Positions 49,942-62,235 of a stretch of DNA of 64,000 nucleotides are shown here, piece after piece. Location: the sequence record NC_024142.2; one strand, 5' to 3'. This stretch comes from Escherichia phage Bp4. A program made the position numbers and the translations under genes. Every line of letters starts with the position of its first letter. The stretch's first letter is position 1. The notes below the pieces were generated by a model. It did not search any database and was not told the DNA's origin. It saw nothing but the letters and a program-made list of their open reading frames with translations.

Positions 49942-50321
49942 TAGTATTTACTACCTCTTCTATACCAGGGGTAGTGATGAGTAGTGCTCTTACCTTTGAA
50001 CACATCCTTGGTATAAGGATTCTTTTGTATTTGAGCCAAGTAAAGATGCATTTCGTCATAACACGGGCTAAGCCAGAACTTATCTATGATTCGGTCTACC
50101 TTAGATTTCAGATGGGGTTCTGGAGGAATGTATGAATGAAAAGGTCTGCTAGTAACCCATCCTTTCTGAACAAGAGCCTGCATTGTTGTGTAAAGATCTA
50201 ATTCAATTTCATTATCTACTTGATCATGTACAGCTTTACCTAAGGTGAGCATTGCAGTTTGTTCCAGCTTACCGAAGTCCAGTCCTTGTAGGATAGACTT
50301 ACCATTTCGTCTGTTTGACAT
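49941..50321 (-). CDS. hypothetical protein
   Basis: 126-aa ORF. Confidence 0.4.
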   Translation of the reverse strand: MSNRRNGKSILQGLDFGKLEQTAMLTLGKAVHDQVDNEIELDLYTTMQALVQKGWVTSRPFHSYIPPEPHLKSKVDRIIDKFWLSPCYDEMHLYLAQIQKNPYTKDVFKGKSTTHHYPWYRRGSKY

Positions 50322-50476
50322 AAGAGTACCTATAATTAAAAAAGCCCACGGGTTAGGTGGGCTTGGGTTAGGAGATGGATAAGCAATGAGCTGGAAGCAA
50401 CTTCCACAAGCATCACTATGTAATGATGCTTAGGTTAGTTACTCTGCTTTACTACCACCGTTGGTTTGTACAACAG

Positions 50477-50716
50477 TTACATTTGTAACCTGGTTCTGCC
50501 TTTGTTGGACAGTGACCAAATCAGTGCTACTACCCAGAATACCAGTGACCAGCCTAATACTATATTAAGCACGCCAATGCCCCACTTAGAGGCATGGCCT
50601 CGTGCAAAAGCAATGATAGTAGGGATAAGGTATACAGCTAATATAAACAACATAACAAGGATTGCTGCTAAAGATTCCATGATGGTTCCTATGTGGGGTT
50701 GAGTTAGTTTCTTCAC
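50477..50716 (-). CDS. small membrane protein
   Basis: 79 aa, two hydrophobic segments. Confidence 0.4.
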   Translation of the reverse strand: MKKLTQPHIGTIMESLAAILVMLFILAVYLIPTIIAFARGHASKWGIGVLNIVLGWSLVFWVVALIWSLSNKGRTRLQM

Positions 50717-50753
50717 AAATAGCCCAACAATGCTGGGCTATTTAGGCAGCTAC

Positions 50754-50963
50754 TTACTCAGCGTCTTTGCTTGCAGGAGCAAGAGCTTTCTTCAGGTAAT
50801 TACGTACTGAACGATAGGTTTCTTTGGTATCCATAGTACTATCATTTACGAATGTGATACGTGCACAATCAGACAGTGGAATTTGTTCCACTCCTACTAC
50901 ATTTGCAGCATTAATGGTTACACGTACATCTGAGGTTGCATGAGTTACTTGAAATACTGACAT
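50754..50963 (-). CDS. hypothetical protein
   Basis: 69-aa ORF. Confidence 0.35.
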   Translation of the reverse strand: MSVFQVTHATSDVRVTINAANVVGVEQIPLSDCARITFVNDSTMDTKETYRSVRNYLKKALAPASKDAE

Positions 50964-50972
50964 GTTGTTTCC

Positions 50973-51479
50973 TTATTTACTGCTTCTTGCAGCTACTGGT
51001 TTGTTTTCCTGGTTCTGATACTTGCCATTGTAATTAGCAGGTTCCTGAACCAGATGAAATAATACTTGAGCTATCCCAGAACCAGCCGGGATATGCAGTT
51101 TCTTACGACCGTGATAGACAAGTTCGAGGGTAAGATACCCTTTCCATCCTGGTTCTATTACGGTATTGAACACAGATAATGCACGTCTTGCCCAGGTAGA
51201 CTTATCGTGAACGATGGCTACACAGGAAGGAGACATGTTGAACTTCTCAATTGCTGAAGCCAATGTGAACTTACCGAGATGGCGTGATACTTGATTTCCA
51301 TCAACGACTTTCACCATTGGAATCAACCCAAATAAGCGATAGAAGGTAATATCTTGTTTGATACGAATATCATAACCAGCTTCACCCAATCCATAGCTTA
51401 CACCATGCTCGGATACCTTACGGTCTGGGACATCCAGCAACTGAGATGAACGATAAAGAGAATTACCATTAACAACCAT
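50973..51479 (-). CDS. dCTP deaminase / dUTPase-family protein
   Basis: Motifs VSYGLGEAGYDIRI and PAGSGIAQV resemble the dCTP deaminase/dUTPase fold; 168 aa. Confidence 0.5.
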   Translation of the reverse strand: MVVNGNSLYRSSQLLDVPDRKVSEHGVSYGLGEAGYDIRIKQDITFYRLFGLIPMVKVVDGNQVSRHLGKFTLASAIEKFNMSPSCVAIVHDKSTWARRALSVFNTVIEPGWKGYLTLELVYHGRKKLHIPAGSGIAQVLFHLVQEPANYNGKYQNQENKPVAARSSK

Positions 51480-51997
51480 TATTTCATTCCTTTAGGGATA
51501 TGAACTACCTCCCCAAAAGGTACGGTAGCATTAGGATTATTCAGAACACACCAGATGATAGGAATATCAAATGGTAATTCTTTCATTGGGCGAACATACA
51601 TATCGGAGAATATGATTGCAGCGGTTGGCTTATTCTTAATAATCCAATCACGTACTGGTTCAAGGCTTGTACCACCACGACCAGTAATCTTAATCTCTTC
51701 AAAAGTATCTTCTTCAGTGATGTCTATTTCTTCCTGGATAATATCGTCGAAGGTAATTAGTGACATCTTCTTAGGATTGAACTGACTTTTAACGTAGGCG
51801 ACTTCTGAGTTAAAACGCAGAGAGTCAGCACTACTAATAGAACCAGATACATCCTCAAAGTAGGCTAAGTGACGTAGACGTCCTTCATCATCTTCTAAGG
51901 AAGGTAGATAGATGTCAGTGTAACGACGGTTGGGTCTGGCCCACGTATAATGTGTGTCATCAATGTCGGTAAAAAGTTCATCAGAACTTCCTGCCAT
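51479..51997 (-). CDS. von Willebrand factor A (vWA) domain protein
   Basis: MIDAS-like DVSGSIS and GRGGTSL motifs. Confidence 0.55.
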   Translation of the reverse strand: MAGSSDELFTDIDDTHYTWARPNRRYTDIYLPSLEDDEGRLRHLAYFEDVSGSISSADSLRFNSEVAYVKSQFNPKKMSLITFDDIIQEEIDITEEDTFEEIKITGRGGTSLEPVRDWIIKNKPTAAIIFSDMYVRPMKELPFDIPIIWCVLNNPNATVPFGEVVHIPKGMK

Positions 51998-52051
51998 GGA
52001 ACCACTGGTTTAAGGAATTGGGTAATAACCTCTTCCATACGACCAGCACCT

Positions 52052-52651
52052 TTACCAGGCATCTGTCCACCAGCCATTTTCTGGCTCTGCATTGCACGTA
52101 CTACGTTGTTGACAACAGCACCCTGGGACTGCCCGAAGTGGGGATTTCATGTCGCCAGCAAGACCTGCTCCAGCACCCCCTGACGGCTTCTGCCTTTTCT
52201 GAGGGTTCTTCATCAGGTCATCGTAGATGTCTTCTTCGACCCATCCTTTATATTGAGGGTCTTTGCAAATGCCTTCATCAATGCCAGTGAACTTGTAACC
52301 ATCTTCTTCTAACTGAAGGTTAATGAAGTGGTCACAAGCCTGGTTCCAGACTTCTGGGTCACGGCTTCCACGTCGGATGTCGTGTAGATATGCCACATGC
52401 CATAATTCATGCATAAGCACTGTTTCTCTTACATCTGGACACATCCAGATAAAGAAATCTGGGTTGAAATGGAGTTCTATCCCATCAGTACATGCAGTGG
52501 GACAATCCTCACGTTTCCATGAGAATTTAAGACTACACAGTAATGAACCAAAGAAGGCTGCGCTGCGACCTAAAAAAGCCTGCGCTTGGATTCTATCGTA
52601 CTCCCTCATTAGCTGCTCATCTGTGAGACTATGCGTAGGTATACTGTTCAT
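52052..52651 (-). CDS. putative zinc metallopeptidase-like protein (HExxH)
   Basis: HELWHVAYLH motif; partners with the vWA gene; C-terminal 30 aa look non-protein-like. Confidence 0.5.
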   Translation of the reverse strand: MNSIPTHSLTDEQLMREYDRIQAQAFLGRSAAFFGSLLCSLKFSWKREDCPTACTDGIELHFNPDFFIWMCPDVRETVLMHELWHVAYLHDIRRGSRDPEVWNQACDHFINLQLEEDGYKFTGIDEGICKDPQYKGWVEEDIYDDLMKNPQKRQKPSGGAGAGLAGDMKSPLRAVPGCCCQQRSTCNAEPENGWWTDAW

Positions 52652-52983
52652 TAGGGTGCTCCATGATTGGGGTGATAGCCATACAGTTTTTCAGCCGCTT
52701 TTCTGGCGTCTATGGCATCTTGCTTGTCTGCAAAAGTGCCCAAACTTACCAGACGTGTTCCATCAGATATAGCTGCATACCAGATGGAATCACGCTTGTG
52801 CCAGTACACACCAGTAACACCACTGGAATTAGTTACCCGTTTCTTTTGGTTTCTGGTGTTAGTTCTGCTGTCTACTAATCTAAAGTTACTTAGAAGGTTA
52901 TTAACCCTATTGTGGTCTAGGTGATCAATCTGCATACCTTTCGGGATAGGTCCATTGTGCATTTCCCATATGACACGGTGCAC
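52651..52983 (-). CDS. HNH homing endonuclease with AP2-like domain
   Basis: HNH box QIDHLDHNRVNN and AP2-like GVYWHKRDSIWYAAISDGTRLVSLGTFADKQDAIDARKAAEKLYG. Confidence 0.75.
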   Translation of the reverse strand: MHRVIWEMHNGPIPKGMQIDHLDHNRVNNLLSNFRLVDSRTNTRNQKKRVTNSSGVTGVYWHKRDSIWYAAISDGTRLVSLGTFADKQDAIDARKAAEKLYGYHPNHGAP

Positions 52984-53136
52984 TTTGTAACTTTTGCCCT
53001 TATAGTTGAAGCATAAATAACCATCGCTATTTAGATTACCTACCTTTTTCCAGCAATGCCTCTGGAGGCTACTGTAACTTTCCAGAATAGCTCCCCATTT
53101 ATGTAAACGAGTATGTCATTCCAGTTCATGTTGTGA

Positions 53137-53637
53137 TTACCCGTGAATGTAGCGAGAGATATTAGCAGCAGCCTTACGCCATTCAGGGGTAGCCTGAAGA
53201 TCTGGTAATGCATTGCCTACTGTACGGAAGTACAGAATCTTATGGGTGAACGTTTTAAAGCGTTCAATATACTGAAGAACATCAGCAAAGTTTTCTTCAG
53301 TAGTTTTGTTAGCCAGATGGTTAACGGTAGCCCAACACAGGTTGTTATCTTCTGGTAGTGCACAACCCATAGGGTCTTTGACTACTTTTTCAATCGTAAT
53401 GATACGATTGTATACCTGAGTGAACTGAACAAACTCTGTAGCCTTACCAGCAGTAACGTGACCTGAATAGTAGATAGAATCTTCATCAGGAAGAGCACCT
53501 TCTGGTAAGTTCTTGAGGTCTTTATTAACAAAGTCCCAAGTACGAGGGCAACAGAACGTTTTGTTCTTATGTGCTGGGTCGAAGTCATGCAGATAACCAG
53601 GGTTAGCATGTAAGAATGCAACCAGACGTTCATCCAT
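53137..53637 (-). CDS. AAA+ ATPase, C-terminal part (after frame change)
   Basis: 166-aa ORF whose frame is open from about 53645; continues the ATPase in the -1 frame. Confidence 0.5.
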   Translation of the reverse strand: MDERLVAFLHANPGYLHDFDPAHKNKTFCCPRTWDFVNKDLKNLPEGALPDEDSIYYSGHVTAGKATEFVQFTQVYNRIITIEKVVKDPMGCALPEDNNLCWATVNHLANKTTEENFADVLQYIERFKTFTHKILYFRTVGNALPDLQATPEWRKAAANISRYIHG

Positions 53638-54188
53638 TGCTGAGGAATCATTACATCTTCAACAAAGATGTCGAAGTTAAGTTCCATTTCAAAGTGAACC
53701 ACACGAGACTGCATTGCAGTACCCAGTGGGTTAACAATGGCACGGTCAGTAGCTTTGTTACCAGCACAGACAATCATCACATTAGGATGAAGTTTTTTCT
53801 GACCAGTCATACGGTCTAGAATCAGTTTATATGCAGCAGCTACTACTTCTTTCTTAGCTGAGTTGAACTCATCAAGGAATAAGAGCCAGCCATTATACCC
53901 TTCTGGTAATTCATCTCCCTCAATTGGGAATAAGTCAGCGAATGGAATAAACTCTGCACGGTCACCATTACGGAATGGTAAGCCAGAAAGGTCTTCCGGG
54001 GCAGAAGTTGACAGACGATGGTCTATCAACTTCATACCAAATTCTTCTGCAATAGAACGAATGATTGCAGATTTACCCATGCCAGGTGATGAAGTCAGGA
54101 ACGGTACGTTACCTGCTTTCAAAGCACGGATAATAAAGTTACGAGCTTGACGTGAATTACATACGGTCAAGGAGTCAATGCTTGCCAT
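53382..54188 (-). CDS. AAA+ ATPase, N-terminal part (real coding probably ends near 53640)
   Basis: Walker A SSPGMGKSAI and Walker B LLFLDEFN; after VHFEMELNFDIFVEDV the ORF becomes low-complexity (likely out of frame). Confidence 0.6.
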   Translation of the reverse strand: MASIDSLTVCNSRQARNFIIRALKAGNVPFLTSSPGMGKSAIIRSIAEEFGMKLIDHRLSTSAPEDLSGLPFRNGDRAEFIPFADLFPIEGDELPEGYNGWLLFLDEFNSAKKEVVAAAYKLILDRMTGQKKLHPNVMIVCAGNKATDRAIVNPLGTAMQSRVVHFEMELNFDIFVEDVMIPQQWMNVWLHSYMLTLVICMTSTQHIRTKRSVALVLGTLLIKTSRTYQKVLFLMKILSTIQVTLLLVRLQSLFSSLRYTIVSLRLKK

Positions 54189-54222
54189 TTACTTACTCTC
54201 CTAAAGCTAATGGAATTACTGA

Positions 54223-54552
54223 TTAAGATTTAGTGCAGGGATAGGCCTTGTGTACTGAGTACACAACAATTTGAGATGTATTCTTCATCTTGAGGATTGC
54301 AGAGTCATAAATAACCACTTTGGCAATCTTAGGCAGAATGACCGAATATTTAATACCTTCTGGAACACAGTTATCTGTGCTCTCGATGTAAGAGATCATA
54401 CTGCCCATGAAGAAACCTTGTCCGAACGCATCACGAGTGTCATCCAGGTAAGCCTGAGCACCTTCCAGAATTGGTTCTGGTTCAATTGCTTGTGCACTTG
54501 GGGCTAAAGCTATCAGTGCAGCTACTGCAATACCTTTAAGTAAAGTTTTCAT
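54223..54552 (-). CDS. secreted/periplasmic small protein with signal peptide
   Basis: N-terminal MKTLLKGIAVAALIALAPSAQA signal-like sequence; 109 aa. Confidence 0.45.
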   Translation of the reverse strand: MKTLLKGIAVAALIALAPSAQAIEPEPILEGAQAYLDDTRDAFGQGFFMGSMISYIESTDNCVPEGIKYSVILPKIAKVVIYDSAILKMKNTSQIVVYSVHKAYPCTKS

Positions 54553-54738
54553 TTAGTTACCTTTCATTTCATTGAGTTTAAGTACACCGATAGGGGTTAA
54601 TGACCACCCAAGACCAGCATTGAACTGAACTAAGCCCAGCTTCTTAAGAGACTGTGCGGTTTTGTTATTACGGTTGCTGGTGGCAGAACCACCTTGAACC
54701 ATACGAAGGAAGATTGCTTGGGACTGAGTTAATTTCAA
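54553..54738 (-). CDS. hypothetical small protein
   Basis: 61-aa ORF, abuts neighbours. Confidence 0.35.
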   Translation of the reverse strand: MKLTQSQAIFLRMVQGGSATSNRNNKTAQSLKKLGLVQFNAGLGWSLTPIGVLKLNEMKGN

Positions 54739-54944
54739 AGGTAATATCCTTCCAGGTTTATTGGTGTTACAAATGTATTTGCTGATAGATAGAATGATTT
54801 ACCAGTTTCTACAGCAACAGCAGCAGGTTTGCCTTCAGGTAGGTGAATCTTTAAACACACTGTCTGGTTATAAATAAAACCATTAGCAGGCTCTACATCA
54901 CCGAAAGTTACTTCATTGTTCTCAGAACGATTTGTTACTTTCAC
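54735..54944 (-). CDS. hypothetical small protein
   Basis: 69-aa ORF, overlapping start/stop with neighbours. Confidence 0.35.
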   Translation of the reverse strand: MKVTNRSENNEVTFGDVEPANGFIYNQTVCLKIHLPEGKPAAVAVETGKSFYLSANTFVTPINLEGYYL

Positions 54945-55201
54945 TCATCTTCTCCTTCATCCGGTAGCGGTGATAAATCTACACCTAAATGCTTCAGGCG
55001 TTTCTCTAAGTCATCTACCTTATTTTGATAAAATGACAGTAGCTCAGGTAGTATTCTTGTACGAGCTTGCGGTCCTAAATCCTTATCGTAAAAGGATACT
55101 TTCACCATATGTGGAGCTTTCTTCAAACTAGCTAATTGCTGTCGGTTGTCGTTGTATTCTTCATACAATTTCTCAACCAAATGTAGATTGTGGATATTCA
55201 T
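54941..55201 (-). CDS. hypothetical protein
   Basis: 86-aa ORF. Confidence 0.35.
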   Translation of the reverse strand: MNIHNLHLVEKLYEEYNDNRQQLASLKKAPHMVKVSFYDKDLGPQARTRILPELLSFYQNKVDDLEKRLKHLGVDLSPLPDEGEDE

Positions 55202-55386
55202 TTCTTCTCCGGTACGAACTGCATTACACAGCTTTGATTACGAGGGATATTAAGTTCACATTCATGCTTGAGGGTTTGTGTTACAGAGTTTGGAGTAGAA
55301 CCAAAATAGGTATTGGAGATAGCTACGAATCCTGCACCTATTAAACCACCTAGTAAGAATGAGAAGAATGCAATCTCTTTATACAT
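55198..55386 (-). CDS. small membrane protein
   Basis: 62 aa with one hydrophobic helix. Confidence 0.35.
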   Translation of the reverse strand: MYKEIAFFSFLLGGLIGAGFVAISNTYFGSTPNSVTQTLKHECELNIPRNQSCVMQFVPEKK

Positions 55387-55446
55387 TTCCTGGCTCCAGA
55401 TGTAGAAAACCCAGTCAATGCTGGGGTTTATCTATCAGTTTATACT

Positions 55447-55707
55447 TTATAGACCATGTGGTCGGCATAGACTACCCGAACCAAACGAACGGTGTCCAAG
55501 TCGGCCCAGGATTAGATTGCTTACTTCAGCAGCAGCACGACTGAATGCTTTAAAGTCAAAAACTACGATACCAAAGAGTGGGGCTGCAATAGCAGCTACC
55601 ATGATTGGAGTCAGGTCAACCAGTGACATACCCAAGATTAAGTGAGCAGCGTAGGCAATAATACCCATTCCAACACCACAACCATATCCAATAGCAATTT
55701 TACGCAT
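55447..55707 (-). CDS. small membrane protein
   Basis: 86 aa, Gly/Ala/Ile-rich hydrophobic segments. Confidence 0.4.
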   Translation of the reverse strand: MRKIAIGYGCGVGMGIIAYAAHLILGMSLVDLTPIMVAAIAAPLFGIVVFDFKAFSRAAAEVSNLILGRLGHRSFGSGSLCRPHGL

Positions 55708-55777
55708 AGTTACCTTCTTAGTTAGTAAGTTGATTTACATATTCATATAACAGACAAACAATAGTCAAAAAAGACTC

Positions 55778-55802
55778 CCTTCAATAGGGAGGTCAAGCTT
55801 GA
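55778..55802 (-). terminator. intrinsic terminator (minus-strand sense)
   Basis: Hairpin GACCTCCC-TATTGAA-GGGAGTC followed on the minus strand by TTTTTT. Confidence 0.5.
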
Positions 55803-55844
55803 GGGTTTTATTTCAGGGTTTATAACCCCAAACAAAGGATACTC

Positions 55845-56723
55845 TTATTCTGCAACAGTAACAGGGATAGTTACATCGACCGTACCATTGGTAACTACTA
55901 CAGAAGTAGCTTCACCAGCAGCCACTGGTTTAACTGTCAGTACGTTACCAGCAATGGTAGCCGTAGCACGAGCAGAATCTGGAGCAGTCTTGATAGACAA
56001 AGTACCAGCAGATGAACCAACGGGCATAGCAACAATTGTTACGGTCTTACCAGCAGCAAGATCATCAGCAACAGACAGAGCCAGTGAAGCAGGAGTAGCT
56101 ACCAGTGAACTTGCTTCGTAATAGCCTACAGCTAATAGTGATTCATCCTCTACCGTGGTTCCATTAGCATCAGTAACAATCACTTTGTAAGTACCAGCAG
56201 AAGTAGCTGTTACGTCATTAAGAGTCAGTGTTGCAGTAGCAGCGGATTCGTTCTCACCTGAATCAATATCAGCGAATGCTGCTCCAGCAGTATCAGCTTT
56301 GAATTGCCATTTATAAGTAAATGGTGCTTTCCCACCTGCTACATCAACGTGCCAGTTGATGTCTTCACCTTCGATAGTAGAGACTACACGAGGCAGTTTG
56401 GTAGCAATAGTCAGTCGTGGGGTAGCTTTCATATCAATAGAGATAGACTGCATATCCACAATGTTGTTAGGCCAGAAGCCTGCTTTACTTGGGTCTTTAG
56501 CAGAACGTTTATACAGCAGGTCACGAACACCATGATAGATAACTAAGCTATCTGGGTAAGTGGCATCTGGGTGTTCAAAAGTTCCTACTTCTATGGAACC
56601 ACCTGGGATAGAACCACTGGCATCCAGTACAGTTGCAACATTAGTGGTTTTGTTAAAACCTACTTTCAAAGTTGGCATATCAATTTCCTCATAAGTAAAT
56701 AGCAGAGTTAGTATACATGACAT
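55845..56723 (-). CDS. Ig-like domain protein (capsid decoration protein candidate, N4 gp17-like by position)
   Basis: Thr/Ala/Val-rich beta-strand repeats (TYKVIVTDANGTTVE, TVTIVAMPVGSSAGT); located right after the RNAP II genes. Confidence 0.45.
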   Translation of the reverse strand: MSCILTLLFTYEEIDMPTLKVGFNKTTNVATVLDASGSIPGGSIEVGTFEHPDATYPDSLVIYHGVRDLLYKRSAKDPSKAGFWPNNIVDMQSISIDMKATPRLTIATKLPRVVSTIEGEDINWHVDVAGGKAPFTYKWQFKADTAGAAFADIDSGENESAATATLTLNDVTATSAGTYKVIVTDANGTTVEDESLLAVGYYEASSLVATPASLALSVADDLAAGKTVTIVAMPVGSSAGTLSIKTAPDSARATATIAGNVLTVKPVAAGEATSVVVTNGTVDVTIPVTVAE

Positions 56724-56727
56724 GTAA

Positions 56728-56756
56728 AAAATAAACCCTCCGTTAGGAGGGTTAGT
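56728..56756 (-). terminator. intrinsic terminator (minus-strand sense)
   Basis: Hairpin AACCCTCC-GTTA-GGAGGGTT followed on the minus strand by TATTTTTT. Confidence 0.5.
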
Positions 56757-56967
56757 TGTTTACACAGTAGATAGCAAAAGCTATCCATCCTGCCATTACA
56801 AAGCAGCCTAGTGAGTATGCTCCATAGTAGTAATAAGCAAACTTAGATTTGTGGGCATGAACTATTGTAGACAGAACCAGTACAGATAAAACTATCAGTA
56901 TTAACTGAGAGATTACTTCAAAAGGGATTAGCATAGTTGTTACCTCCAAGCAAAAAATATGCCTCAC
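56752..56967 (-). CDS. small membrane protein
   Basis: 71 aa, two hydrophobic helices. Confidence 0.4.
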   Translation of the reverse strand: MRHIFCLEVTTMLIPFEVISQLILIVLSVLVLSTIVHAHKSKFAYYYYGAYSLGCFVMAGWIAFAIYCVNN

Positions 56968-56991
56968 TCCCGAAGGAATGAGGCTAGTTTA

Positions 56992-58239
56992 TTAACTCAA
57001 CGCATAGTCTGTTTCAAGAATGTCCTGCCAGAGGCTGTCATCCAGCTTACCAGCAGAGAACTCTTGCCCCAGTACCTGAGACAGGATGAAGCCCAGTAGG
57101 TCACTCTTAGCAATATCAGACAGGATCTGATTGTACTGACGACGCAGGTCATTACCGTAGTTAGGATGGCAACGGAAGCAGTCATGTACAGTCATTACAG
57201 GGAATGGTTTCTTAGGCAGAGTGTCAATCATATCTGCTACTACCTGACGGTCTACATAAGCAATAGTACATGGGTCAAGATAGTCCAGGATGGATAAAGA
57301 TAAGAAGCCAGACTTCTCATAATGGCTCCATAGCTCTTGTACCTTCTCCAGATTACCTGCAATCTCCCCATATTCTGATGGACCTTCATCACAGAGTTCT
57401 CGCACAGCTTCCACTAAGTCACGGTCGAAGTTACAACGACGCAGCATCTCACGTACCACCATCCCATCAATAGAGTGGGTGATGTTAGCAGAGAGCATAC
57501 GAGTCTTCTCTTCAGTACCCTGAACCATACGAGTAATGTCGAACGGTTTGCCTAAGAAGTTAACAGTCTGTACTTCTGGAACCATGACCTTAATGACAGC
57601 GTGGAAGTTGTCAGGAAGTATCCATATGTAACGGTTGGCATCTGGATTACCACATTGCAGTAAGAACTTGTTCAATGCCCAAGGACCACTAGCAACAGTT
57701 TCCATTACATTCTCAAAAGTCTTGAGACGAATACCTTCACCGAATACTTCTTTAGGCTTGGCTTCTGAGCCGTAGAACGCAGTCATAACTGCCTGCTTAG
57801 TGTCACTACGTTTAATACGAGATGCTTCACCAAGGATGTCCAACATCTTGTGATAGATGACTGTATAAGCATCACGACGTAATGGCTTACCATTCTCACC
57901 CATGTAATTAACTACGTTACACAGTTCAGCAGCAGAGCGGTCACCCGTCAGACAAGCCAGTAATTGCAAGCCAGATGATGTAGCATCCAGAGCTACGGCA
58001 TAACCAATAGGCTTACCTGCTTTCATATCTTTCCATGCATTTACACCAGCATAGAACAGTGCAGAATCTTCAGCTTCATCTACCAGATTAAGCAGGTTAG
58101 CTTCGTTCTCATCGAACCAGGCAATACGCTCATCCCATGTCTTTTTATCCAGACCATAGTTATTGGCGATATCTACTTTCAGGTATTGTTTAGCGGTTAA
58201 CAGTTGCATTTTATGTTCCTTTTGCTTCTTGCTCCCCAC
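56992..58239 (-). CDS. phage RNA polymerase II large subunit (T7-like single-subunit RNAP catalytic half, N4 gp16-like)
   Basis: T7-like motifs: ALDATSSGLQLLA (motif A), RSDTKQAVMTAFYGS (motif B), TVHDCFRCH (motif C). Confidence 0.8.
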   Translation of the reverse strand: MGSKKQKEHKMQLLTAKQYLKVDIANNYGLDKKTWDERIAWFDENEANLLNLVDEAEDSALFYAGVNAWKDMKAGKPIGYAVALDATSSGLQLLACLTGDRSAAELCNVVNYMGENGKPLRRDAYTVIYHKMLDILGEASRIKRSDTKQAVMTAFYGSEAKPKEVFGEGIRLKTFENVMETVASGPWALNKFLLQCGNPDANRYIWILPDNFHAVIKVMVPEVQTVNFLGKPFDITRMVQGTEEKTRMLSANITHSIDGMVVREMLRRCNFDRDLVEAVRELCDEGPSEYGEIAGNLEKVQELWSHYEKSGFLSLSILDYLDPCTIAYVDRQVVADMIDTLPKKPFPVMTVHDCFRCHPNYGNDLRRQYNQILSDIAKSDLLGFILSQVLGQEFSAGKLDDSLWQDILETDYALS

Positions 58240-58415
58240 TATGGAGAGCCTGCTTATTGGATGGTTAGGCAGTTACTACGTCGGCAGATAGTTTATAAAT
58301 AATGGTTTTACTCTCAGGGTTTTGAAGCTTGTAAAGCTTCTCAAAGTATAAGCACTTCACATATGTACCTGAGTAGACACACTCTTCATTAACCCATAAT
58401 TCATAGGAGCCAATG

Positions 58416-59234
58416 TTAGTCTTCATTTACTAACTCCTTATCAGCGAACTCCAGTACAGCTTTGTTGTAGCTGGTTCCCTGATAGTTGATGTGGTAGCCA
58501 CAGGCATATGTACGCCCACGTTTGTCATATTTGTGAGCCAGTGAGAAGTTATTACCTTCCTTGGTCACTAACTCCATTACCTCTTTAGCTGTACGGCTGT
58601 ACTTTTCAAAGGCTTTAACACGTTTCTCATAGTCCTGACGGGTTTCACCTTCTTTGGGTTTATCCATGTTAGGACGAGAGTCTTTTACATAGTTAGCAAC
58701 GTCCCAGTTAATACAGAGACGTTGGTTATTCATACGGTTAATGTGGTCAAGACAGACATCCATTTCATGATGGTTCTTCTTGAGAATGATGCTACCCCTG
58801 CTTTCGTAGTAACCAGTATCACGGTTACATAGAACAGGCTTAGGAGCACTTACGATAGGCAATGGATACTGGAATGCTTCCAGTTCCATCTGTACATCTT
58901 CACTAATCTCATAAATAACACCGAACTTGTCGATGGTAGGGTCATAGTTGAAGCAGTCATTCTCTGCCATCTTATACAGACAGTCAGCGATGTACTGAGC
59001 ATCATCTGAGTGACTCATGAGAGAGCCAATCATAGTTTGGATGTCAGCACGTTTATGTAGGGCAATCTGCACCATTGCATCAATGAGCAGCTTATAATCA
59101 ATTTCTAAATAGGCAGCGAATGCCTTAAAGTCAATTTCTTCGGAGTCCTCGAATTCCTTCCTCATGCGAGGGAGTAATTGATTCTTGTTGAAAAGGATTT
59201 CAAGTTGCTTCTGATGTTCAATAGATGAGTACAT
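58416..59234 (-). CDS. phage RNA polymerase II small subunit (N-terminal half of split T7-like RNAP, N4 gp15-like)
   Basis: 272 aa directly upstream of the catalytic subunit; the split arrangement is characteristic of N4 RNAP II. Confidence 0.65.
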   Translation of the reverse strand: MYSSIEHQKQLEILFNKNQLLPRMRKEFEDSEEIDFKAFAAYLEIDYKLLIDAMVQIALHKRADIQTMIGSLMSHSDDAQYIADCLYKMAENDCFNYDPTIDKFGVIYEISEDVQMELEAFQYPLPIVSAPKPVLCNRDTGYYESRGSIILKKNHHEMDVCLDHINRMNNQRLCINWDVANYVKDSRPNMDKPKEGETRQDYEKRVKAFEKYSRTAKEVMELVTKEGNNFSLAHKYDKRGRTYACGYHINYQGTSYNKAVLEFADKELVNED

Positions 59235-59267
59235 CGCTTATTCTCCTAAATGTGATTAATAACCAAA

Positions 59268-59282
59268 AGCTGCGGAGCAGCT
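59268..59282 (-). promoter_or_regulatory. hairpin promoter candidate (N4 vRNAP-type), template-strand hairpin AGCTGC-GGA-GCAGCT
   Basis: 6-bp stem, 3-nt GGA loop on the plus (template) strand, about 35 nt upstream of the RNAP II small subunit start; shares the GCGGAGC core with two other hairpins. Confidence 0.45.
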
Positions 59283-59287
59283 ATTAC

Positions 59288-59548
59288 CTAACGCTTAGTC
59301 CAAAAGGCAATACGAATACTGTTCTCTTGACCAAGATAGTTAATACGTACATATAATCCATTACCATTAAATTCTTTTCTTTTTTCTTGATAAGGCCATA
59401 CCAGACTACGCATAGGTATATTAACAAAACCTGATATGTGACCTAACTTAGTACGACCTTTTAGTTCGTTTTGTAATGCACAATAGATATCATGTCGTGT
59501 AAGTGCTCTGGCTCTGACTTGAGCAGACCACAGTTCTTCATATGTCAT
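59288..59548 (-). CDS. hypothetical early protein
   Basis: 86-aa ORF. Confidence 0.4.
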   Translation of the reverse strand: MTYEELWSAQVRARALTRHDIYCALQNELKGRTKLGHISGFVNIPMRSLVWPYQEKRKEFNGNGLYVRINYLGQENSIRIAFWTKR

Positions 59549-59934
59549 GAGAAGGTTCCCCAGTAGATATAGTCATCTCCCAGAATAGGCTTCCAGGCTT
59601 CGTCAAACATGACATTGCCTGTAGCATTGGCAAACATAGGAGCAATATCTTCATCCTTATAACCAGCTAATCCACAACCAATACGTGTTACTTTAAAGTC
59701 CCACTCTGGGTGGGCTGCTGCGTATAGAATGAAGGATGCTACGAATGTCTTAATGTCCTTTAACGGCATAGTCTTGATTGACTGGTCTTTGGTTGGGATT
59801 GCATAGCTGCAACCATAATGGCCTACGCCCATACCCCAACGAGCACCATGCTTCTTATATGCAACTTTCGCTGCACCAGCGCCGTGACGTCCTGCTAAAT
59901 TACTTCCGAATACGAAGATTTCTTTCATTTGCAC
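59545..59934 (-). CDS. hypothetical protein with Gly-rich nucleotide-binding-like motif
   Basis: FVFGSNLAGRHGAGAAKVA and GCSYAIPTKD motifs; 129 aa. Confidence 0.4.
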   Translation of the reverse strand: MQMKEIFVFGSNLAGRHGAGAAKVAYKKHGARWGMGVGHYGCSYAIPTKDQSIKTMPLKDIKTFVASFILYAAAHPEWDFKVTRIGCGLAGYKDEDIAPMFANATGNVMFDEAWKPILGDDYIYWGTFS

Positions 59935-60105
59935 AATTTCCTGTTGTAGTTGTAAGCCTCTTGTTGAGTCATACTTGTATTAGCATGAGTTAGCTCCAAA
60001 TACGTCAGAGCATATTCATGTCACGCTGTTCCTTCTTGGTTCGGCAATGACCACATTTACCATCCCATTGGGATACATGGCCTTTACCACATTTGCATTG
60101 TTTGT

Positions 60106-60369
60106 TCATTTAAAAGTACTCCATGGTATGGACTCCAAGTAATTAATTTTGTAAATAATCTTACTTCTTATTTCTCCACCAACATCTTGTACATGGATTA
60201 GGTTTAACCTTTGTGCTTGGGTTATAGTAGCTGCAAGAGTTCTCCCCATAATATTTGATATTTCTATAAAAGATTTATTGGATTCTACTAGTATCTTTAA
60301 ATTAGTATTATCTAAGTTACTCCACTCTTTAGAATGATTTGCTGGCTTATCCATTAGGATTCTCCACAA
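60106..60369 (-). CDS. hypothetical early protein
   Basis: 87-aa ORF. Confidence 0.4.
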   Translation of the reverse strand: MWRILMDKPANHSKEWSNLDNTNLKILVESNKSFIEISNIMGRTLAATITQAQRLNLIHVQDVGGEIRSKIIYKINYLESIPWSTFK

Positions 60370-60727
60370 AATAGTTATACATAGCTTTTACTAGTTTCTC
60401 TTTAATAACCTCACCATGACAAGGTTTCGGATAACAGAAGCACTGTAAGGCTAACCCTTTTTCGTCAATGGCTTTATTACCCAGACGATTAAGTTCATCC
60501 AGTACAACTGGATTCTTTCTCATTATTTGCTCATTAAGCCATACTCGATACTTGGCTATAACCTGTTCTCTTGAACCGTCTTTACCAATAACGAATGGAT
60601 TGCCTAATGGTGAGCCACGTCCAATATACTCACCGGATTTACCGTGATGTTTATTAACAATGTTAATTGGACGGGCAGATACACCTAGTAAAGCATTGGT
60701 GTCATCACCTAAAGAGATAATCTTCAT
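60347..60727 (-). CDS. hypothetical protein (DUF4326-like motif pattern)
   Basis: GRGSPLGNPF and CFCYPKPCHGE motifs; 126 aa. Confidence 0.4.
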   Translation of the reverse strand: MKIISLGDDTNALLGVSARPINIVNKHHGKSGEYIGRGSPLGNPFVIGKDGSREQVIAKYRVWLNEQIMRKNPVVLDELNRLGNKAIDEKGLALQCFCYPKPCHGEVIKEKLVKAMYNYFVENPNG

Positions 60728-61038
60728 GGTTTAAGTACCTGGAATGGGAATACAGGACGTTTACTACGCCACTGGTTCATAGCTAATTCACTAGTTTCAG
60801 AACCATCATGTAAGTCATAGATAAATGAGATTACATAGTCTGGTTCTTCCGGGAAGTTCTCTATAGAGAACGGTAGACCTGATTCTTTAAGGATGGTAAC
60901 CAGTGGTGATTCAGCATTACAGTAAAGGGTAAACTCTTCATTGAATGCTTGGCTTGTCTGAGATACATAATCAATATTACGCATCATCTTATCTACATCA
61001 GTAAACGTAGAATCATGGATTACTAGAATAGTTTTCAT
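60724..61038 (-). CDS. hypothetical early protein
   Basis: 104-aa ORF; overlapping start/stop with neighbours. Confidence 0.4.
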   Translation of the reverse strand: MKTILVIHDSTFTDVDKMMRNIDYVSQTSQAFNEEFTLYCNAESPLVTILKESGLPFSIENFPEEPDYVISFIYDLHDGSETSELAMNQWRSKRPVFPFQVLKP

Positions 61039-61226
61039 ACTGGCTCCCTGCCTGTAAATGCTACTACTTTTCCTGACATATTCCGTAGGGTTACCTGTGC
61101 TGAGTTAACATCAGCAAATTGCTCTGCAACCCAGTTAAGCATCTCAGGGTCATTATTTAATTGTTTGTTAATCACAGTTTTACTGTCTGCTGTTACTAAA
61201 GTGATTTCATAATTTTCAATATTCAT
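61035..61226 (-). CDS. hypothetical small protein
   Basis: 63-aa ORF. Confidence 0.35.
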   Translation of the reverse strand: MNIENYEITLVTADSKTVINKQLNNDPEMLNWVAEQFADVNSAQVTLRNMSGKVVAFTGREPV

Positions 61227-61703: not shown

Positions 61704-61934
61704 TTATTCCTTAGTAATGTGATTGGCAGTATAGAAGTCATTAATCTCTGATTGGGTAGTATCAGCATAACCGGATACACCGGTTTCTTTATTAACCCAT
61801 TTATCGAAGCACTCACTGTGTCCATGTGTACTAACTTTTACCCATGTACTGGTTCCAAAGAATGTTTTTTTCTCTACTTCTGCACCAATACCACGTTCAT
61901 TATCTGCAAAGCGTATTACCTTATATTTAGCCAT
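61704..61934 (-). CDS. hypothetical early protein
   Basis: 76-aa ORF. Confidence 0.4.
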   Translation of the reverse strand: MAKYKVIRFADNERGIGAEVEKKTFFGTSTWVKVSTHGHSECFDKWVNKETGVSGYADTTQSEINDFYTANHITKE

Positions 61935-62235
61935 TTAATGCCTCCATTAATATTTTACGAATAACGTTAACATCAGACTCTGTACCAATTAAGCCAACAG
62001 GCTTGCCTGTACTATCTGTTACAAAGGATGCAATCCTTTCCATCTCTGCTGTAATTAGTTTGTCCCCACTAATAAGACGATTACGGAGGTAAGCTTCATA
62101 AGCTACCTCTACATCTTCTACTGTGGTTCTTTCATTACGAGTGAATGGATTACTTAATTGAAAGGGTAAGTGGATACGGATATTCCTGTCAGCTATCTTA
62201 GCTGATTGAGGAAGTATACAAACAATTTCATTCAA
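61927..62235 (-). CDS. hypothetical early protein
   Basis: 102-aa ORF. Confidence 0.4.
   Translation of the reverse strand: MNEIVCILPQSAKIADRNIRIHLPFQLSNPFTRNERTTVEDVEVAYEAYLRNRLISGDKLITAEMERIASFVTDSTGKPVGLIGTESDVNVIRKILMEALNG

Follow-up and report, generated by a model that had tools for sequence, protein, structure and literature searches.

What do the small early genes of an N4-like phage contribute when infection begins? This question is raised by two short reading frames, ORF1 and ORF2, in a 64,000-nucleotide stretch of Escherichia phage Bp4 (NC_024142.2), referred to here as the window. An original prediction, made from the sequence, had described them as early genes with conserved-looking motifs reminiscent of small-molecule or nucleotide processing domains, and had left their families unassigned. 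Both frames were found where that prediction had placed them and with all of the motifs that it had quoted, namely GSNLAGRHGAGAAKVA and GCSYAIPTKD in ORF1, and GRGSPLGNPF and CFCYPKPCHGE in ORF2, and these motifs proved to be invariant columns of the respective families. The evidence presented below makes it probable, in our judgement, that the two proteins are an ADP-ribose-processing counter-defence pair, expressed as infection starts; we infer the counter-defence role from domain fusions, gene context and characterised analogues.

ORF1 and ORF2 lie in a tightly packed early operon

Over positions 59200-61100, the window shares 99.9% identity with the N4-like podophage PD38 of Escherichia (Schitoviridae, Gamaleyavirus Bp4), with a single indel in this interval. 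All genes of the region are on the minus strand and form a tightly packed early operon, in which stop and start codons overlap and which ends in the two phage RNA polymerase II subunit genes (Table 1). The assignment of ORF1 and ORF2 to the early genes agrees with this arrangement, since both lie within the operon and adjoin the polymerase subunit genes.

In the ORF listing, ORF1 has 129 aa starting from GTG and ORF2 has 126 aa starting from ATG. The true start of ORF1 is probably the ATG at 59928, giving a 127-aa protein that begins MKEIF, because homologues begin at this position and the PD38 annotation has a 384-nt CDS. The PD38 annotation describes the products of both genes as 'hypothetical protein', and a Bp4 protein that is 100% identical to ORF2 is already annotated as 'DUF4326 domain-containing protein'. 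Each of the two ORFs has thousands of database relatives, which places both far beyond chance. Neither was matched by the PADLOC models, a library of host defence, not anti-defence, proteins.

Table 1. Features discussed in the text (positions in the window).
Feature	Coordinates	Strand	Remarks
RNA polymerase II subunit gene	56992-58239	-	Pfam RNA_pol; operon end
RNA polymerase II subunit gene	58416-59234	-	Pfam RNA_pol; operon end
ORF1, compact macrodomain protein	59545..59934	-	N4 gp14-like; NCBIfam A1S_2505_Nterm; phrog_2072
Four-Cys, zinc-ribbon-like ORF	59925..60110	-	phrog_13804, E 2.2e-31 for PD38 form
87-aa ORF between ORF2 and ORF1	60106..60369	-	phrog_37989; start overlaps ORF2 end; same packed operon
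ORF2, DUF4326 protein	60347..60727	-	invariant R37 in GRGSPLGNPF; C96-x-C98-x-P100-x-x-C103-H104 loop
Divergent DUF4326-like paralogue, 102 aa	61927..62235	-	phrog_464, E 8.8e-16, full length

ORF1 is a macrodomain, probably of the DarG/TARG1/AdfM type

In NCBIfam, ORF1 falls firmly in NF049995, 'A1S_2505 family phage non-structural protein, N-terminal domain', at E 5e-48; its score of 161.8 bits exceeds the curated threshold of 45, and the match spans all 109 positions of the model. Pfam gave no significant match for ORF1. At least 7998 relatives were found in a large protein collection (best E 5e-80), and relatives occur in 457 phage records, mostly of N4-like phages of many hosts, with some jumbo phages and others. 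The name 'N4 gp14-like' is the gene name in one N4-like record carrying a relative.

The AlphaFold2 model of ORF1, built from a 51-sequence alignment, was confident (pLDDT 93.3) and has the three-layer alpha/beta/alpha macro fold. When it was compared with the PDB by Foldseek, the top matches were all macrodomains: BT1257, TARG1, SCO6735, DarTG and Poa1p. The best of these, TARG1/OARD1 and BT1257 (2fg1/2afc, from Bacteroides), share ~20% sequence identity with ORF1, and yeast Poa1p, a macrodomain ADP-ribose 1''-phosphate phosphatase, shares 11-16%. BT1257, itself uncharacterised, carries a RIGCGLAG segment identical to that of ORF1. The two Gly-rich loops of ORF1, FGSN12LAGRHGAGAAK and RIGCGLAG, match the patterns N-x5-G-x-G-[VA]-A and G-x-G-x-x-G and align with the loops of TARG1 and AdfM, and their Gly-rich columns are invariant in 161 homologues.

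Profile comparison by hhalign linked the ORF1 family to human TARG1 (E 1.1e-5, probability 82%), with the Gly-rich loop aligned and R-I-G-C-G-L identical; the segment of the TARG1 sequence used here agrees with the PDB alignment. In this comparison, K49 of ORF1 aligns to the catalytic K84 of TARG1, whereas the second catalytic residue of TARG1, D125, is replaced by the invariant A90. The equivalent Asp is not known to be required in DarG. The match to phiKZ gp104 (AdfM) was weak (E 3.6e-4, probability 37%) and placed N12 on AdfM N23 and K49 on AdfM K78, with a P-T-K-D motif common to both proteins. AdfM strips the ADP-ribose added by DarT2 from DNA and acts against DarTG2, and its N23 and K78 are putative active-site residues that match N22 and K80 of DarG2 (PMC13309987). 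The two phage proteins also differ: ORF1 has 127 aa and AdfM 162, and ORF1 falls in the separate family NF049995. No match of ORF1 to Pfam Macro (PF01661) was found at E <= 0.1, whereas gp104 and the DUF4326-containing representative P0242 do match this model; the ORF1 family is too divergent for it. A search of PDB sequences with the ORF1 profile (hmmsearch) gave sub-threshold macrodomain matches (E 0.3-1.3). Weak Pfam matches to bleomycin-resistance and 5-FTHF cyclo-ligase models, at E 0.02-0.08, fell below the cut-off and were dismissed as chance similarity. A purple acid phosphatase match from a single-sequence search of solved structures was noise (E > 1). We regard the macro fold and the ligand loops of ORF1 as secure.

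Residue conservation was scored over two sets of homologues, 80 viral and 81 bacterial. G10, S11, N12, G15, H17, G20 and A22 are invariant (N12 in 161/161), and P47, T48, G86, C87, G88, A90, G91 and N107 are fully or almost fully conserved, with 72 of 81 as the lowest count in either set. Of the 80 viral sequences, 77 have K49, as do only 39 of the 81 bacterial ones, the remaining bacterial homologues having Met or Leu. Since about half of the bacterial homologues lack it, the Lys is not a family-wide catalytic residue; its predicted catalytic role would be limited to the phage branch, and some members of the family may only bind ligand. ORF1 and the N4 gp14-like/A1S_2505_N family are probably a DarG/TARG1/AdfM-type macrodomain, in which the Asn/Lys pair is retained in the phage branch.

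Some homologues of ORF1 carry the submitters' labels 'ADP-ribosylglycohydrolase' or 'Macro domain Poa1p family'. ORF1 might conceivably regulate or reverse ADP-ribosylation by an ADP-ribosyltransferase (ART) of the phage itself, as a host-takeover toggle, and N4-type ARTs are indeed among the commonest viral ARTs (PMC9503650). However, we consider this highly improbable: no ART is annotated in ~86% of the pharokka-annotated close relative PP889499 (the record outside 50001-57087 and 69466-72326) or in a 7.8-kb stretch of PD38, and in phage RcKeef it is the homologue of ORF1 that bears the label 'ADP-ribosyltransferase', apparently through misannotation.

ORF2 is a DUF4326 protein with a RapZ-C/phosphatase-like fold

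ORF2 matched Pfam DUF4326 (PF14216) with E 6.5e-23 and 81.6 bits (gathering threshold 25) and phrog_464 with E 5.8e-38, and its relatives number 5944 in an exhaustive HMMER search of 50%-identity cluster representatives. It is a full-length member of the family, and nothing sets it apart from the other members. In a 71-sequence alignment of DUF4326, the invariant residues are R37 (within G-R-G-S-P-L-G-N-P-F), L94, C96, C98, P100 and C103, and the nearly invariant ones are H104, N43, R53 and Y60; ORF2 has all of R37, L94, C96, C98, P100, C103 and H104.

The fold of ORF2 is nearest to that of RapZ-C, followed by PTP/DSP and rhodanese domains. Its C-x-C-x-P-x-x-C-H loop sits between the strand formed by residues 92-96 and the helix formed by residues 105-122, and the active-site loop of PTPs and rhodaneses occupies the same strand-helix position. 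This fold agrees with the RapZ-C/DUF488/DUF4326 clade that Burroughs and Aravind reportedly placed in the rhodanese-phosphatase superfamily in 2023. The relation to RapZ-C is at the level of the fold only, and the DUF4326 alignment showed no sequence link to E. coli RapZ in hhalign (probability 0.4%). Searching the sequences of solved structures with the DUF4326 profile gave no match for ORF2, and an exonuclease III match from a single-sequence search of the same structures was noise (E > 1). The prediction of small-molecule or nucleotide-processing domains is supported for both proteins, as a macro fold in ORF1 and as a clear DUF4326 domain with a RapZ-C/phosphatase-like fold in ORF2; the profile searches and fold comparisons that had been proposed as a check revealed similarity to enzyme folds.

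The loop itself, C96-F-C98-Y-P-K-P-C103-H104, has no canonical C-X5-R phosphatase motif and no Arg. It can be read as C98-X5-H104, and the conserved residues R37 and R53 lie elsewhere in the sequence. The three Cys and the His could equally form a structural metal site.

Domain fusions and gene order connect the two families

The most direct connection between ORF1 and ORF2 is a 240-aa representative (P0263) in which an ORF1-type domain (hmmsearch E 1.6e-36) is followed by DUF4326 in one protein, and P0242 similarly combines a Pfam Macro domain with DUF4326. Among the 31 multidomain DUF4326 representatives, nine have SLOG-type partners (YAcAr, YpsA, cpYpsA or DprA-like), three have NADAR, one has Macro and one has a 3'-5' exonuclease. 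The domain that defines the ORF1 family is likewise fused in bacteria to NADAR (one case), to ADP-ribosylglycohydrolase/ADP_ribosyl_GH (three cases) and to a DprA-like SLOG domain (two cases). One further bacterial fusion joins it to a 'Swiss-army-knife' DSP/PTP phosphatase domain (PTP-SAK); apart from the DUF4326 fusions, this is a separate instance of a macrodomain joined to a domain of the Cys-phosphatase superfamily.

According to a prediction by Aravind's group, DUF4326 acts on terminal phosphates carried by the ribose of ADP-ribose (ADPr); the group also noted its fusions with Macro, NADAR and SLOG domains (PMC9503650, PMC7824862), which were recovered again here. The two families already have entries in NCBIfam, Pfam and PHROGs, and the DUF4326-Macro-NADAR-SLOG network is published. 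What is new here is modest: the probable macrodomain type of the N4 gp14-like family, its Rosetta-stone fusion with DUF4326, and a second, degenerate DUF4326 paralogue in the phage.

The same fusions bear on a different reading of ORF2, as an enzyme of nucleic-acid ends or DNA modification, or a non-catalytic zinc-binding nucleic-acid binder, with functions in replication or R-M and not in ADPr metabolism. DUF4326 has been found fused to replication and R-M components (PMC7824862). In our set, besides the single exonuclease fusion, two representatives (P0261 and P0320) join DUF4326 to a four-Cys zinc-ribbon-like motif; among the further PHROG matches of ORF2 are the profiles 'DNA repair protein' and 'NrdA-like', and three Cys and a His within a 9-residue loop would fit metal or nucleic-acid binding. 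However, ADPr/NAD-associated partners occur in 14 of the 31 multidomain representatives and a nuclease in only one, and the nearest fold is that of RapZ-C, which is described as binding an amino-sugar phosphate. We consider a nucleic-acid role quite unlikely.

Gene order was surveyed around ORF1 homologues at 80 viral and 80 bacterial loci. Of the 80 viral loci, 16 have a DUF4326 gene on the same strand and no more than 3 kb upstream, and a looser BLAST clustering placed DUF4326 by an ORF1 relative in 23 loci; DUF4326 was absent near the homologue in 64/80 viral and 79/80 bacterial loci. The two genes abut in one Burkholderiaceae MAG. In Bp4, ORF2 is a stand-alone protein encoded ~400 bp upstream of the macrodomain gene, whereas some other DUF4326 domains are fused to a macrodomain. 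A stand-alone SLOG gene lies within the same early cluster in seven related loci; none was found when a SLOG gene was looked for in the window. The linkage of ORF1 and DUF4326 is mostly synteny among N4-like phages, so that it represents few independent events. It might be that ORF1 acts alone as a dedicated anti-DarT2 factor, an analogue of AdfM directed at thymidine-ADPr in phage single-stranded DNA, and that ORF2 is a functionally unrelated neighbour; we rate this as rather unlikely.

A proposed role in erasing ADP-ribose-based defence

We favour a joint function of the two proteins, for which other phage factors offer precedents. AdfN is a phage NADAR protein with proven activity against DarTG1 (PMC11825919), and ORF83 is a SLOG-like protein that acts against Avs type III and has giant-virus homologues fused to DUF4326 (bioRxiv 10.1101/2025.06.06.658234). 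Both are stand-alone phage versions of host-type ADPr/nucleotide glycohydrolase domains, and their folds differ from those of ORF1 and ORF2. NADAR and SLOG, the classes to which AdfN and ORF83 belong, are recurrent fusion partners of DUF4326. What this last report and the two papers from Aravind's group (PMC9503650, PMC7824862) state about DUF4326 consists of computational predictions only. AdfB of phage ICP1, which interacts directly with DarT to neutralise it and has no macrodomain description, was rejected as a relevant analogue.

In the mechanism that we propose, ORF1 would bind the ADP-ribose moiety through its FGSN12-x2-G-x-H17-G-x-G-A-A and R-I-G-C87-G-L-A-G loops and would probably hydrolyse the ribose C1'' bond with the help of N12 and K49. 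Its substrate might be ADP-ribose that the host has attached to a macromolecule, or an ADPr-derived small molecule, and the best-precedented candidate would be the ADP-ribosylated thymidine that DarT2-type toxins leave in phage DNA. ORF2, a small Rossmann-like domain of the RapZ-C/phosphatase-like group, probably forms a phospho-sugar pocket from its Arg loop and its Cys/His loop, and probably removes or transfers a phosphate; the group acted on, a phosphate or a ribose, would belong to ADPr itself or to the product released by ORF1-type enzymes. Together, the two proteins would erase or dismantle NAD+/ADPr-based defence chemistry of the host.

A variant of this scheme, possible but in our view doubtful, is that the pair targets small diffusible or toxic ADPr derivatives and not macromolecules, for example ADPr-1''-phosphate, ADPr cyclic phosphate, cyclic ADPr signals or sirtuin-type O-acyl-ADPr. 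ORF1 would then be a Poa1p-like enzyme or an O-acyl-ADPr deacylase, and removal or transfer of the ribose-linked phosphate would fall to ORF2. Against this variant, the Asn/Lys pair of ORF1 resembles that of the DNA-acting DarG/AdfM class. A more far-reaching version of the counter-defence reading is offered tentatively: the two proteins could form a two-step counter-defence pathway, DUF4326 could catalyse a novel reaction on ADPr or on the product of de-ADP-ribosylation (e.g., Cys/His-dependent removal or transfer of a ribose phosphate), and N4-like phages could carry an anti-DarT or anti-ADPr macrodomain that is far commoner than the AdfM of chimalliviruses.

ADP-ribose chemistry is one of the main fronts in the conflict between phages and bacteria, with DarTG, Thoeris, sirtuin- and TIR-based NAD+ depletion and CmdTAC as examples, and experimental proof for phage NADAR and macrodomain "orphan antitoxins" is only recent. 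DUF4326, with more than 5,900 relatives among the 50%-identity representatives, occurs in phages and giant viruses as a recurrent partner of proven anti-defence domains. In Bp4, a tractable phage of E. coli, each of the two parts is encoded by a small gene of its own, which makes a direct test feasible. Should ORF1 act like AdfM, N4-like phages would in general be resistant to DarT2-type defence, which would bear on the choice of phages for therapy. As a finding, the pair confirms published computational predictions and is no new kind of system.

Neighbouring small ORFs and a degenerate DUF4326 paralogue

Two small ORFs separate ORF2 from ORF1. The 87-aa ORF had no match in Pfam, NCBIfam or PADLOC, and a by-eye impression that it is GcrA-like was dropped, having found no support from BLAST or Pfam. 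The four-Cys ORF has 61 aa in PD38; here, a 1-base deletion near 60019 shortens it to 34 aa (60006..60110). Its N-terminal motif, MxxxCxCxxGxxSxxDxKCGxCRT, is the one that precedes DUF4326 in P0261 and P0320, which come from other phages.

Further upstream lies the divergent DUF4326-like paralogue, which had no Pfam match and was detected among the ORFs of the window by hmmsearch with the DUF4326 alignment profile (E 8.1e-7). It keeps L-x-N-P-F and the Tyr, and has lost R37 and the entire Cys/His loop, so that it is probably not catalytic. A comparable weak second DUF4326 match was seen in several related loci, and the catalytically degenerate copy could serve as a decoy or a regulatory subunit.

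Gene content of the early region

Comparison of ORF1 (59545-59934), which encodes the macrodomain protein, and ORF2, which encodes the DUF4326 protein, with their counterparts in phage HK2 of the same genus showed that ORF2 is 98% identical, whereas the HK2 ORF1 homologue is merely about 49% identical. Therefore, two very divergent macrodomain-gene alleles exist in early regions that are otherwise near-identical, a pattern suggestive of either rapid evolution or the exchange of a cassette. The ORF1 homologues of phages G7C and ECBP1, likewise of this genus, are about 50% identical to ORF1 of the window.

The region also contains a second, DUF4326-like gene (61927-62235), whose product matched phrog_464 (E 8.8e-16) and a DUF4326 profile built in this analysis (E 8e-7). 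Because the invariant Arg and the entire C-x-C...C-H loop are absent from this product, it looks, from its sequence, like a catalytically dead DUF4326 paralogue. Weak second DUF4326-like matches equivalent to it were also observed in several related N4-like loci. Some N4-like relatives furthermore carry in the early cluster a stand-alone gene for a YAcAr-like SLOG domain (L005:8275-8640 and six other related viral loci), which adjoins the degenerate DUF4326-like gene; a search of the window for a SLOG gene found none. Thus, the ADP-ribose-related gene content of this early region differs from phage to phage.

Additional open reading frames (ORFs) of the early region
Feature	Coordinates	Strand	Description
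Small ORF between two RNA polymerase II subunit genes	58265-58426	-	53 aa; hypothetical in the annotation of Escherichia phage PD38
Four-Cys zinc-ribbon-like ORF, phrog_13804	59925-60110	-	61 aa intact; 34 aa in the window
Second, divergent DUF4326-like gene	61927-62235	-	102 aa; phrog_464 and DUF4326 profile matches

The small ORF overlaps the end of the upstream RNA polymerase II subunit gene and had no match in Pfam. Over 59200-61100, the sole difference between the window and PD38 is a 1-base deletion at about 60019, which causes a frameshift in the phrog_13804 ORF and could be a sequencing error or reflect a genuine pseudogene. The four-Cys motif of this ORF is also found fused N-terminally to DUF4326 in two phage proteins, P0261 and P0320.

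Database records and bacterial homologues

A protein 94% identical to ORF2 (P0224) comes from a 2.76-Mb contig that carries the label Enterococcus faecium. Since a gene of an E. coli N4-like phage would hardly be expected in that species, the assembly may be contaminated or wrongly labelled. The ORF1 homologue of Rhodobacter phage RcKeef (L003:4001-4369) is annotated as 'ADP-ribosyltransferase', which is probably a misannotation, since this label is at odds with a macrodomain (eraser) fold.

The A1S_2505 proteins of Acinetobacter genomes (L125-L160), namesakes of the family, are about 262 aa long and have an ORF1-type domain, with Met or Leu at the position of the putative catalytic K49, followed at the C-terminus by a further domain (about 130 aa) without a Pfam match. 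Met also occupies the K49 position in those Bacteroidales ORF1-type domains that are fused to ADP-ribosylglycohydrolase.
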